A stretch of DNA of 64,000 nucleotides from Bilabrum cf. latius (lineage: Eukaryota): positions 124,001-188,000 of the forward strand of contig OZ237738.1 in the NCBI GenBank assembly GCA_965178125.1, read 5' to 3'. The position numbers were made by a program, and so were the translations under genes. Below are positions 1 through 64,000 of this stretch, one piece after another. The notes beneath the pieces were generated by a model, which saw nothing but the letters and a program-made list of their open reading frames with translations, ran no database searches and was not told the origin of the DNA. Numbering within the stretch: position 1 is the stretch's first letter; every line of letters begins with the position of its first letter.

Positions 1-1869
1 CTGGGGGCGCACGGGGAGGGGTGGGAGCTGCTGGGGCAGCGGCCCTGGTGCTCCGCGCCCCCGCTGCAGCAGGCGCGCACGCGTCCCCTGCAGCGGGACC
101 CAGAGTACCGCTGGAAGCGCGAGTGGAGCAAGGAGTACCAGGGCGAGGGCACAGGGGGAGCGGGAGCTCGGGCCAGGGGTCCGAGCATCAGGCGCGCGAA
201 GGGGACAGGGCCAGGGGACGGCAAGGAACAGGAACAGGGACAGGGGGCAGGCGCCTTCTCCGGTGGTCGCCTCGCAGCTGCCGCCCTCACGGGCCGCAAG
301 CGCAAGCGACCCACAGACCCAAGGCGCAGGTGGGCGGAGCGCAGGCGCCGAGCCGCCGCGGAGGACTCGCTGTACATGCTGCGCCCCCGCATCACGAGAG
401 ACAAGGTGCTGGCCCTCGACAGGATACCGCTCACGTAGAGGTCCGTTCAGTGGCGCCGGTCCGCTGCCGCCCAGCTGGCGGGCAGGGCGGCCGCCCAGGA
501 GAGGGTGCGCCGGGAGCGGGTCACGGGCCCGCTGGCCGGGATGGCGCTGGCGGCCGGCGCCGTGGGGGTGCCGATGCCCAGGTCGGGGTCGTTTGCGCGC
601 GCCGTGCTGCGGGGACAGGGGCAGGTGGCGGACGAGGGCGCCGTGGACGGGAGGGGCCACGGGGTCGCGTACGGGCCCCGCGTGGGACTGGGGCAGGCCG
701 TGCTCTCCGAGACGCATGCCGTGCACGCAGCTGCCTTCCCCGGGGGCGCCCCCGTGCGCCTGGCCACCGGTGACGCGCTCGGGCTGGGCGAGGAGGCCAG
801 GGGCTCGGCTGCCGCGGTGGCTCCCGGGGGGTTGTTCACCGGGTTCCACCGCCGGAGCGCGCCGAAAGGGGCGGCGCACGCGCGGCGCAAGGGGGACATG
901 GTGCACGGGAGCGCGCCCCTCGGGTGGATGGCTCGGTGGTCGGACGGGTCGGGCGACCCCGACCTGGCGGACAGGGGCGTGGTGGGCCGCGCGTCTGCGC
1001 CCGTGCGCAGCGCGGTGATGGCTGACTCGGCCTTTGCGAGGATCGGAGGGGGGGCGGGGGCCAACGGTGCCGCGCCCCGAGCCGCTGTCGGCGGTGAGGC
1101 GGCAAGCGGGGCCGCTGGGTCTTCGTCTTCTTCTTCCTCCTCGTCGTCGTCGTCGTCGTCTGCTTTTTCGTCCAGGGCGGGCGGACATTCGGTGGGCGGC
1201 GCCGGCGCCGGCGTGCACCCGGACGACACGCAGGTGGTGGATCCAGCGGGGTCTCGAGCGGCGGGGGACGCTCTGGGCTGGGTGCGGGCGGTGGGGCGGC
1301 GGGCGGAGGCTGCGAGCGGGCTGGGGCGGGGGAGCGGGGCGCTGCTTCCGGCCGAGCAGCGGGCGCAGGGGCTGCTGGGCGGGCTGCAGGGGTCGCACAC
1401 GGGCCTCATGAAGCAGCGCGCGGCCTTTGTGTCGTCCACCGGGGGGCCCGTGGGGGTGGTGAGCGGGTCTGCGAGCAGCGGGCAGTCGGCCAGCGGTGCC
1501 TCCGCGAGCAGCGGACAGGGGCTGCCGCTGGGCTCTCTGGCGGCAGCTCACGCGTCCAGCGCTCGCGTGGACGAGACGTACGCCCTGGAGGACTCTGATG
1601 ACGAAAACCTGCTGCTGTCCGCGCACGCCGCCACGGCCGACTGCCGGACGGGCTACGACGGGACGGACGAGACTCCTTCCGCGCCGCTGGGGTCGAGGGA
1701 GAGGTGGGCCGCCAGCATGGTGGAGGGTGGCAGCAAGGGGGTCGGGGCGCTGCAGGCGGCCGACCGCACCGGCTGGCTGAGCACCGCCGGGTTCCACCCC
1801 CAGGCCGGCCGGGACTCGGCGGCTTTCCTCTTCCACCAGCAGTCTCTCGTGGACCAAAAGCTGCTTTGA
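1..1869 (+). CDS. Hypothetical low-complexity protein, 5' end outside window
   Basis: Frame 1 is open from base 1 to TGA at 1867-1869 except for one TAG (436-438). Ala/Gly/Ser-rich with a poly-Ser tract; no recognisable domain. Confidence 0.6.
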
Positions 1870-2002
1870 AGACAAGATACCAATCATTCGCTGTTGTGAT
1901 TCTGTTTCTTGCTGTTGCCTGGCGGCCCGTACCCACTTGTGCTGTGGCACAGGATGGCATGGCTTGGCCTCATGCGCTCGAAAGAAGCTACTTTAGAAAT
2001 AT

Positions 2003-61900: not shown

Positions 61901-64000
61901 TGCACAGATCGGCGCCGGCTCGCCACAGTCCAGCCTCCCTCATCTCCTCCCGTGGATCTGGAGCTGGACCCCGACTGGAGCTGCTGCTGTCGCTCGTGCT
62001 GCTGCTGAGCGCGCATGCCTGCCTCAAGCGCCTGTCGCAGCGAATCGGGAAGCAGGTGCGGCCTGCGCAGGGCGGTCTCATCGATGGGCGGCATCTGCGC
62101 CTTGGACACGAGAACCTCCGGCAGGTACTGCAGGAAGGCATACTGCGCTACAAACTGCAGGGGGTGCCGCCGCAGGTCGGGCCGCCTCGAGTCCCCCCCC
62201 GCGAGCGCAGTCCGGGCACGCGGGAAGAACGCGCTCCCGAACGCGCGTGCGGCGGCGGCGATCGGCGGTGTCAGCTGCAGCGCGCGGCCCGCGTCGTCAG
62301 CGGCTCCGCCTCCGCCCCCACCAAGACCCCTGGGAGAGGGCACCAGCGGCTGCCTGCCCCTGATACCGTGCTCCTTGGCCGCAGCGACTGCAGAGGCCAC
62401 CGCGCCCATGAGCCTGTACTGGCCCCCCCGGATGGCCCGCAGGAAGGAGGCCAGTGCGCTGCTGGGCACACCGTCCAGGAGATCTCTCCACGGTGCCACG
62501 GGACTTGCCACCGCGAATGCTTTCGCCTCCCCGTGCCGCCCGCCTGCGGCAGAGGTGCTGCTCCTGCCCGTCCGGACGGAAGCTGCGGCGCCTCCACCCG
62601 CCGCCCCCTAGCCCATACCTCCGTGCCTAAACGAAGACATGAAAGAGAGCTCGGTACGTGACTCGGACAGCCCGTCCACGTCGGCAGACATGGCAATGCG
62701 GGCCGCCCTGGCCACCGCAGCGAAGGACGCGCGAGCGGCAGGGACCAGCGACACCGGCATGGCTTCCGCAAGGCACGGCAGCGATTCCTCTGGGGCATCG
62801 AGGGAGATGGAGGGAGCCCCCCTCGACTCGTGGTAGGGCCGCTGCAGCCGGTCGGCCGAGGCCCCCGCCTGCGCGAGGTCAGCTTCCGCCATGAACCGCC
62901 TCAGCATGTGGCACTCGAAGCTGGCCACCCCAAGGAGCGCGGACGCACGAGCCGCCTCTGACCGGAGCGCGCTAGCGAATTTGGCCGTTTGCGCAGGGGT
63001 TTGATCGTCTGCGGCGGTGCGGGGGGAGTGCATCTCGCTGCCGGGTGCCTTCCACGGCTCTGCTGCGGTGGCACTGCCCCTGCGGGACGGCGAGGATGGG
63101 TTGCTGGATGGGGCCGAGAGCCCCTCCTGCATGCGCACCATGCGCCTGGCGATGTTGTCCACCTCGGCAGAGGATCTCTGCAGCGAAAGAGCGATGCCAA
63201 CGCCCGCCGCCACCCCGCTCGCCGTCACGACAGCCACTGGGTACGAGTGGCCGCTGCCAGACTGCTCCCGCGCACAGGCCCGCATGCCGGCCGCCGCCCG
63301 CCGCACGCCCTCGCCGGGCTCGGGGTATCCCTCTGCCGCGGGGCTCGCCAGGGAGTCGGCGGTTGCGTCCAAGGCGGAGGAGGCGGCTCTCTTCCCGACG
63401 GCCGCAAACCCCGTCTCTCTCGCGAATGTGGCAAAGAAGGACGCCACTGCCTGCAGCGGGTGCACGATCACGGGGGGACGGGAGCTCGAGGCAGAGCTGC
63501 CGTCGCCGCGCCACCGCGCCCGCCGCCGCCGCCGCCGCCGCCTGCGGGCCGCGGGCGAGTCCTCAAACGCGTTGGGGTCCCCTGGCCTGGGCGCGCGCGC
63601 GGCCCCCGCGGCCTTCCCCACCAGGCTGCGCGTGAGGAGCTAGAGGTCCCTCGTCGGAATCGGATACTTGCGGCCCACGGGCTGCTGGCCCGGGCGCCTG
63701 GGTGCCTTGGACGGATCCACCCCGGGCGGGGGCTCCAGCTCGGACATGAGGCTGGGAAGCAGCCCAAAGTTGCTGGCCCTTGCGTGGCCGCGGGCCCGCC
63801 GCTCCTGGCCCACGGCCTGTCCCCACGCTTCCCTCGCTACGCACACGCGACGCTGGTCGTGCTCCGCAAATACGGCGGCCAGCATCACGGCCATTGCCTC
63901 CACGGGAATGAGGCTCGGGCTCGGCTGCTGCGTGGATCCGGGCCGTGCATCCGCCCTCCCCGGAATATTCCTGGACTGCCCATCACCACCACTGGATGGA
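55981..64000 (-). CDS. Very large (>2670 aa) mostly disordered protein with a possible OST-HTH/LOTUS-like domain; 5' end outside window (6 TAG)
   Basis: ORFs 63640, 62608, 61804, 61405, 59554, 59200 and 55981 share one frame, are separated only by TAG, and end at TGA 55981. Confidence 0.75.
56895..56967 (-). repeat. (CAGGGG)n microsatellite encoding poly-QG
   Basis: About 12 tandem CCCCTG units on the plus strand. Confidence 0.92.

Follow-up and report, generated by a model that had tools for sequence, protein, structure and literature searches.

The 64,000-nucleotide (64-kb) stretch analysed here, positions 124,001 to 188,000 of contig OZ237738.1 in assembly GCA_965178125.1 (hereafter the window, with positions counted from its first nucleotide), is best explained as nuclear DNA of a GC-rich, intron-bearing eukaryote whose cytoplasmic code reads UAG as glutamine, keeps UGA as the working terminator and does not use UAA as a sense codon. 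We put the probability of this reading at roughly 0.88. It had been suggested by a sequence-only reading of the window, which noticed in-frame TAG codons in many unrelated genes. About 19 genes, on both strands, proved to contain such codons. The evidence comes from reading frames, transcript-derived contigs, homologues and paralogues, and a collinear contig from a related species.

Reading frames in the window

The window has a guanine plus cytosine (G+C) content of 62% and no N, and no Rfam family matched within its 64 kb. Under the standard code its longest frame encodes 1072 amino acids (aa). With TAG read as sense, the longest frames reach 2672, 2278, 1948, 1577, 1564, 1283 and 1193 aa. 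Reading TAA as sense in addition left frame lengths almost unchanged, and real genes gained a few upstream codons at most. Fourteen stop-to-stop frames, together 16,872 codons, hold 100 in-frame TAGs, 96 of them downstream of the first ATG (16,501 codons), and no in-frame TAA or TGA; the last two zeros follow from the construction of stop-to-stop frames, and the weight therefore rests on frame length. TAG occurs 100 times in the coding frame and 116 and 96 times in the two other frames, where TAA occurs 30 and 51 times and TGA 236 and 244 times. At the resulting off-frame density of TGA plus TAA, approximately 1.7%, frames of 500 to 2672 codons are unexpected. No frameshift was found across frames of up to 2672 codons, which are interrupted by TAG alone.

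Further TAGs lie in smaller or spliced genes beyond the 14 frames: two in a tetraspanin-like gene, one in a sulfatase gene, one in exon 1 of an ATG22-like gene, one in an open reading frame (ORF) at 37229-38161, seven (4+3) in the Exo_endo_phos paralogue at 23121-25364 and one in the ORF at 1-1869. Pfam domains cross the TAGs in ten gene families, namely UBA+SNF2+RING+Helicase_C, zf-UBP+UCH, GH56+EGF+DUF7705, GH27 (Melibiase_2), M14, Exo_endo_phos, ATG22, sulfatase, Ldh_2 and DHHC, all of which show complete, ordinary eukaryotic architectures. The five TAG sites quoted in the sequence-only reading are present, at 11580-11582 (minus strand, GH27), 7913 (EGF), 21230 (SNF2), 53126 (Ldh_2) and 51134-51136 (minus strand). 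That reading had also extended the reassignment to the whole genome; what we observe covers the 64-kb window and one 8-kb contig of a relative, from which we infer the genome-wide extent.

Introns and transcript-derived contigs

Leaving aside the small-share runs X8-X12, contigs from four sequencing runs were compared with the window, over positions 36000-55999 only: a DNA run (X1), two runs from one study (X5 and X6) and one run from another study (X7). X1 covers the stretch without joints, and the contigs of X5-X7 omit nine segments of 92-210 nucleotides (nt). Read on the coding (minus) strand, seven of the nine start with GTGAG or GTAAG and end with CAG; of the other two, one becomes GT..AG after a 3-nt shift of the cut, and one has irregular ends and 17 extra letters. 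Because these joints are absent from X1, X5-X7 must be transcript-derived and the locus nuclear; the run records list no RNA source, and it is the splice joints themselves that identify X5-X7 as RNA-derived. Joining the exons restored single frames for the arylsulfatase, tetraspanin-like and ATG22-like genes. The removal of GT..AG introns, together with genes for SNF2/RING, ubiquitin-specific protease (UBP), cytosolic carboxypeptidase (CCP), DHHC, ATG22 and dynein light chain proteins, establishes a eukaryotic nuclear origin, so that the spliceosomal introns and the nuclear locus proposed from the letters of the window are both borne out.

No other letter, insertion or deletion relative to the window was found over 36000-55999 in any run. 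Fifteen in-frame TAGs lie inside transcript pieces, without a single difference: four in Exo_endo_phos paralogue 2, two in the ATG22-like gene, two in the tetraspanin-like gene, one in the sulfatase gene, one in the Ldh_2 gene and five in the DHHC gene. At these 15 codons, removal by splicing, complete editing and errors of assembly are all excluded. Transcripts lacking UAG, or another letter at the TAGs, had been named beforehand as outcomes that would speak against the reassignment; the 15 TAGs are unchanged and unspliced in the transcript contigs, and over 36000-55999 no other letter occurs at TAGs in the contigs of any run.

A related contig with the same trait

A scan of metagenome contigs with the ATG22 alignment recovered a contig of 8.1 kb (L001, positions 1-8106; 55% G+C) whose ATG22 protein is 79-81% identical to that of the window. 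The contig is collinear with window positions 36084-43670 across five genes, encoding the sulfatase, the tetraspanin-like protein, ATG22, a conserved ORF and the Exo_endo_phos protein. Its ATG22 frame spans 584 aa with TAG as sense, versus 285 aa under the standard code, so the relative also needs TAG as a sense codon. The TAG positions in L001 differ in part from those in the same genes of the window. ATG22 relatives are present at 80 metagenome loci, of which L001 is the single one with in-frame TAG, so that the trait seems restricted to a narrow group comprising two or more species.

UAG codons align with glutamine

The clearest single site is in the ATG22-like gene, where the TAG at 39834-39836 (minus strand) falls in a column occupied by glutamine in 111 of 114 homologues and by cysteine in three; in L001 the same codon is CAA. 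For the GH56/DUF7705 gene, columns were taken from 150 representatives of a full HMMER search; a word-index search with the GH56 protein gave three matches. Glutamine is found in 27 of 44 sequences at aa62 and in 8 of 20 at aa1092, where, among six displayed rows spanning the site, the five closest carry glutamine and the sixth alanine. At aa52 the counts are seven lysine, four glutamine and four glutamate of 32, and the sites at aa90 and aa394 lie in variable columns. PDB alignments show alanine, glutamine, glutamine and aspartate at GH56 aa106; the SNF2 TAG at 21230 lies outside all four PDB alignments displayed. For the eight columns that hold ten or more sequences, the summed log-odds were +11.7 bits for glutamine, versus -4.2 for alanine, -10.2 for glutamate, -13.5 for leucine and -13.5 for arginine.

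Codon exchanges between related genes give a second line of evidence. Across 1472 gap-free codons aligned between the window and L001, TAG stands on one side at 13 positions, and 10 of these pair with CAG or CAA. Twelve of the positions are exonic, with 10 of 12 opposite CAG or CAA; the thirteenth, opposite CTT, lies past the exon, within an intron. Paralogues in the window share five TAGs at identical positions in both copies and pair TAG with another codon 28 times, six times with CAG or CAA; in the better-aligned pairs, where 7 or more of the 17 flanking residues are identical, the fraction is six of nine. Glutamine as the meaning of UAG is well supported by these alignments, and other residues are far behind.

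UGA terminates and UAA is not a sense codon

The 20 gene ends traced in the window were reported to be TGA, and all 20 are. In the dynein light chain, the Pfam profile PF01221 (positions 6-86 of 86) matches residues 40-123 of 123, and TGA directly follows the last residue. Four genes common to the window and L001 have frames that end in TGA in both species, and the C-terminal tails are similar in two of them. The uniform gene ends, the dynein C-terminus and the four shared ends together show UGA to be a true terminator.

UAA behaves differently from UAG. The ratio of CAA to CAG in the frames is 132:566, which predicts approximately 22 TAA codons beside the 96-100 TAGs if TAA were also a glutamine codon; none was seen. 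Given this absence, UAA either has no sense meaning or carries one only vanishingly rarely. L001 has no TAA and six TAGs in its 1472 aligned codons, where one or two TAA would be expected.

Weighing the evidence

Several observations weigh against the reading proposed here. TAA ends no gene either (0 of 20 in the window, 0 of 4 in L001), and off-frame TGA outnumbers TAA 480:81, so composition alone would give 20 TGA ends out of 20 with a chance of approximately 4-5%. One in-frame TGA, at 24147-24149, is unexplained; it separates the two halves of Exo_endo_phos paralogue 1 and lies in an insertion of approximately 100 aa that is absent from paralogue 2, and no GT[AG]AG donor was found near it within 23900-24520. 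Some TAG columns favour residues other than glutamine. At GH56 aa106 homologues have glutamate (40), alanine (23), aspartate (13) and glutamine (10) of 117, and at DUF7705 aa962 they have leucine (10), proline (8), isoleucine (3) and valine (1) of 22, with no glutamine. PDB alignments place methionine, alanine and alanine at the Ldh_2 TAG and aspartate at the GH27 TAG, both in variable columns. Among paralogue pairs, three of the nine better-aligned ones have arginine codons opposite TAG, and 22 of all 28 are not glutamine codons, mostly in poorly aligned stretches; two exonic pairs with L001 are GAG and TTG, the latter in a poorly conserved stretch. The transcript evidence consists of assembled contigs, which lose minority variants, and partial editing could be hidden in them. 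Finally, no tRNA gene was found in the window or in L001, and no eRF1 gene was seen in the window.

The least probable alternative, which we consider close to negligible, is that the TAGs are not translated at all and mark pseudogenes, assembly errors, introns or sites of mRNA editing to CAG. Nothing speaks positively for it beyond the partial editing that contigs could conceal, and frames of up to 2672 codons broken by TAG, never by TAA, TGA or a frameshift, speak against it. So does the letter-for-letter identity of the DNA run and the three transcript runs, with 15 TAGs inside spliced transcript pieces and the introns that were found lying elsewhere; the independent metagenome contig, moreover, carries TAGs at other positions of the same genes. 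Only slightly better is the prospect that UAG encodes some other residue, such as leucine (as in the rhizarian exLh), glutamate, tyrosine, serine, lysine, arginine or pyrrolysine. The leucine, proline and isoleucine at DUF7705 aa962 could be cited for it, as could the three arginine paralogue pairs and the single GAG and TTG orthologue pairs, but the summed log-odds favour glutamine over alanine, glutamate, leucine and arginine, and both the ATG22 column and the exonic orthologue pairs agree with glutamine.

Two further explanations are also improbable, though less so. In one, UAA and UAG both encode glutamine (the UAR code), TAA is merely rare through GC-richness, and the organism could belong to a known lineage with that code; for example, TAG and TAA are both reported as glutamine codons in Amoeboaphelidium (PMC6299283, PMC11687900). 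Such a code predicts UGA as the sole terminator, as seen at all 20 ends in the window and all four in L001. It sits poorly with the lack of any TAA in 16,872 codons, with the few upstream codons at most that TAA as sense adds to real genes and with the zero for TAA beside six TAGs in L001, though few were expected there. An aphelid source fits no better, as the closest named ATG22 homologue is 52% identical and comes from the stramenopile Cafeteria, while fungi reach at most 36%, a poor match to a sister group of fungi. Marginally more plausible is a context-dependent UAG that encodes glutamine inside genes and stops translation near some 3' ends, as in Condylostoma, karyorelicts, Blastocrithidia and Amoebophrya sp. 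ex Karlodinium veneficum (Kv). A TAG does stand a few codons before the final TGA of the carboxypeptidase gene (at 12247) and of the L001 ATG22 gene, where termination is indistinguishable from read-through to TGA, and the in-frame TGA at 24147 hints that stops may not be absolute. Yet all four shared genes end at TGA in both species, two with similar C-terminal tails, the dynein light chain has its TGA at the profile end, TAG is no less frequent in frame than off frame and shows no sign of avoidance, and no gene requires a TAG stop.

Proposed mechanism

The mechanism proposed here is one that we infer from what is established for such codes (PMC5304391, PMC11687900). A tRNA-Gln with a CUA anticodon, one base removed from tRNA-Gln(CUG), would read UAG. 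A CUA anticodon would be unable to pair with UAA, which would explain why only UAG became sense; a suppressor with a UUA anticodon would read UAG and UAA, and the missing in-frame TAA fits the CUA route. In parallel, eRF1 would have lost or weakened its recognition of UAG and kept that of UGA, with changes expected in its stop-codon recognition motifs (GTS, NIKS and YxCxxxF; T32G in Iotanema). Most TAG codons may derive from CAG and CAA through C-to-T mutation; the exchanges of TAG with CAG or CAA seen between the window and L001 are compatible with changes in both directions, C to T and T to C, among synonymous codons.

Comparison with known codes

The translation of the window matches NCBI table 15 in type (UAG alone reassigned, to glutamine): UAG is in frame, homologues favour glutamine opposite it (with aa962 in disagreement), UAA is not sense and UGA terminates. 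The nearest described counterpart is the fornicate Iotanema spirale, for which PMC5304391 describes UAG as glutamine, UAA and UGA as stops, a predicted tRNA-Gln(CUA) and an altered eRF1. As there, UAG alone is reassigned, to glutamine, UAA is not sense, the organism is not a ciliate and a mechanism of the same type is proposed. In contrast, the 119 complete transcripts of Iotanema counted in PMC5304391 end 104 times in UAA and 15 times in UGA, versus 20 of 20 UGA ends in the window; Iotanema is a metamonad, whereas the window is GC-rich and its closest named homologue comes from a stramenopile. The ciliates Hartmannula sinica, Trochilia petrani and Protocruzia tuzeti likewise read UAG alone as glutamine, with several independent origins according to PMC11687900. 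The same source has these ciliates preferring UAA as stop, whereas genes in the window end only in UGA; the window also differs from them in its many large genes over 64 kb, its GT..AG introns of 92-210 nt and its 62% G+C. Ciliate homologues ranked first in none of the homologue searches.

Codes with both UAA and UAG as glutamine (NCBI table 6) are listed in PMC11687900 and PMC6299283 for Amoeboaphelidium protococcarum, hexamitid diplomonads, Streblomastix, ulvophytes and many ciliates. They share with the window UAG as glutamine and UGA as the sole terminator in use, but UAA is glutamine there, and the window has none of the approximately 22 in-frame TAAs that this would entail. An aphelid of the Amoeboaphelidium type was also considered as the source and is unlikely, given the missing TAA and the ranking of homologues. 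UAG encodes leucine in the rhizarian exLh and in TARA phyllopharyngean ciliates (PMC5304391 and PMC11687900); as in the window, UAG is uncoupled from UAA in a nuclear genome, but its meaning there is leucine and not glutamine. For Amoebophrya sp. Kv, PMC12005148 describes all three stops as ambiguous, with in-frame UAG probably glutamine and UGA thought to terminate, both as in the window. We rejected it as the source, since it is described as AT-rich with in-frame UAA and UGA, and the window has no UAA and at most one questionable UGA.

Affinity, novelty and meaning

The closest named ATG22 homologue is that of the stramenopile Cafeteria roenbergensis, at 52% identity, an affinity signal that comes from one gene; named fungal ATG22 proteins reach at most 36% with partial coverage. 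The labels obtained for the carboxypeptidase and from cluster names were mixed and came from transcriptomes of unrelated protists (euglenid, choanoflagellate, prasinophyte, dinoflagellate and diplonemid). We tentatively suggest, at somewhat less than even odds, that the window represents an unrecognised GC-rich flagellate lineage of at least two species, possibly a stramenopile near the bicosoecids, that acquired UAG as glutamine independently, ends its genes only in UGA and leaves UAA idle. If this is true, the nuclear code of the lineage would have a single functional stop beside a codon without any use, and it would have arisen under GC pressure and not under the AT pressure that is usually invoked.

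Iotanema apart, a full-text literature search, with most subscription journals outside its scope, brought up no GC-rich non-ciliate reported to read UAG as glutamine, and no report of a nuclear code change in stramenopiles. The reassignment of UAG alone to glutamine is a known kind of change, and it seems that this GC-rich lineage has not been reported before, although the source data date from 2025 and a description may already exist. The lineage is unusual in its high G+C and in showing no terminator but UGA. Changes to the nuclear genetic code are rare, and split fates of UAG and UAA are rarer still; about eight such cases or lineages are named in PMC5304391 and PMC11687900. A GC-rich case with UGA ends only could serve to test stop-codon capture after GC pressure had made a codon rare, a proposal that is our own. 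A natural pair of eRF1 and tRNA-Gln(CUA), as proposed here, would separate UAG from UAA, and PMC5304391 regards such a pair as of interest for eukaryotic code engineering.

Gene finders that assume the standard code would break up almost all large genes of this organism, leaving a badly mis-annotated proteome. Two fragments of GH56/DUF7705 homologues in public protein sets (P0014 and P0018) start just after the positions of two TAGs of the window, which suggests that they were cut at a TAG by standard-code gene calling and that such mis-annotation is already present in public sets.

Genes of the window

The genes are listed below with window coordinates and strand; every listed gene end is TGA.

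1-1869, plus strand: open frame entering from the window edge; one TAG; G+C at third codon positions (GC3) 0.87; no Pfam match; TGA end.
2003-2374, minus strand: dynein light chain type 1 (LC8-like), Pfam PF01221 at 5.9e-17, in agreement with the sequence-only reading; no TAG; TGA end.
2387-5188, plus strand: low-complexity protein with a weak TPR match; 11 TAGs, 10 after the first ATG; TGA end.
6698-10279, plus strand: secreted GH56 hyaluronidase with EGF and DUF7705; seven TAGs, at 6887, 6917, 7001, 7049, 7913, 9617 and 10007; TGA end.
10434-12020, minus strand: GH27 alpha-galactosidase; two TAGs with first bases at 11582 and 10808; TGA end.
12230-16081, minus strand: cytosolic carboxypeptidase (M14); three TAGs; TGA end.
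16205-23041, plus strand: UBA+SNF2+RING+Helicase_C protein in a single frame of 2278 codons; five TAGs, at 18605, 19826, 20255, 21230 and 22487; TGA end.
23121-25364, plus strand: Exo_endo_phos paralogue 1; seven TAGs and the one unexplained in-frame TGA at 24147-24149; TGA end.
25393-30126, minus strand: paralogue A, a large membrane protein; no Pfam match; 15 TAGs; TGA end.
30230-34924, plus strand: paralogue B, head to head with A; 18 TAGs, seven of them in a 48-nt tandem repeat (30869-31157); TGA end.
34953-36905, minus strand: Exo_endo_phos paralogue 2; six TAGs, four of them in transcript contigs with no differences; TGA end.
37229-38161, plus strand: conserved ORF; no Pfam match; one TAG in the upstream part of the frame; L001 orthologue 70% identical over 189 aa; TGA end in the window and in L001.
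38376-40490, minus strand: ATG22-like MFS transporter; exons 38376-39959 and 40070-40490 with a GT..AG intron at 39960-40069; TAG in the near-invariant glutamine column at 39834-39836; TGA end.
40692-41992, minus strand: tetraspanin-like gene (weak Pfam match, below the cut-off); four exons joined in transcript contigs; TAGs at 41955-41957 and 41687-41689, covered in three runs; TGA end.
42181-44544, minus strand: arylsulfatase; at least five exons joined in transcript contigs; TAG at 42820-42822, which is CAA in L001; TGA end.
44348-50194, plus strand: ubiquitin-specific protease (zf-UBP and UCH); 17 TAGs, 15 after the first ATG; TGA end.
50342-52342, minus strand: ORF; two TAGs; the WD label it had been given found no backing, as no Pfam family matched; TGA end.
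52355-53680, plus strand: Ldh_2 family dehydrogenase; TAG at 53126-53128, within the domain and in transcript contigs of two runs; TGA end.
53925-55721, minus strand: DHHC palmitoyltransferase; five TAGs, all within one transcript contig piece with no differences; TGA end.
55981-63999, minus strand: low-complexity frame of 2672 codons that leaves the window; six TAGs; no Pfam match; TGA end.

The products of paralogues A and B are approximately 1570 aa each, with 1095 of 1439 aligned residues identical and predicted membrane-spanning C-terminal parts. Paralogue B contains, at 30869-31204, seven tandem copies of a 16-residue (48-nt) unit with an in-frame TAG at the matching position in each, which indicates that the TAG was duplicated along with the repeat unit. 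The irregular joint mentioned above, at 44544-44750, has GC..AC ends and, in X5, 17 extra letters between its sides; it overlaps the upstream part of the protease frame on the opposite strand, and it suggests that the sulfatase gene has an additional small exon or a different 5' structure. Within the protease gene, each of the four runs has very high summed contig depth and numerous loose ends at two short, low-complexity stretches rich in GA and GC (45898-45941 and 47601-47638); these stretches are repeated elsewhere in the genome and transcriptome. Between the TPR-like and GH56 genes, G+C drops to 57% in the 4-kb bin at 4000-8000, and no frame exceeds approximately 120 aa in the interval from approximately 5200 to 6700, which makes it the longest stretch of the window that appears to be non-coding.

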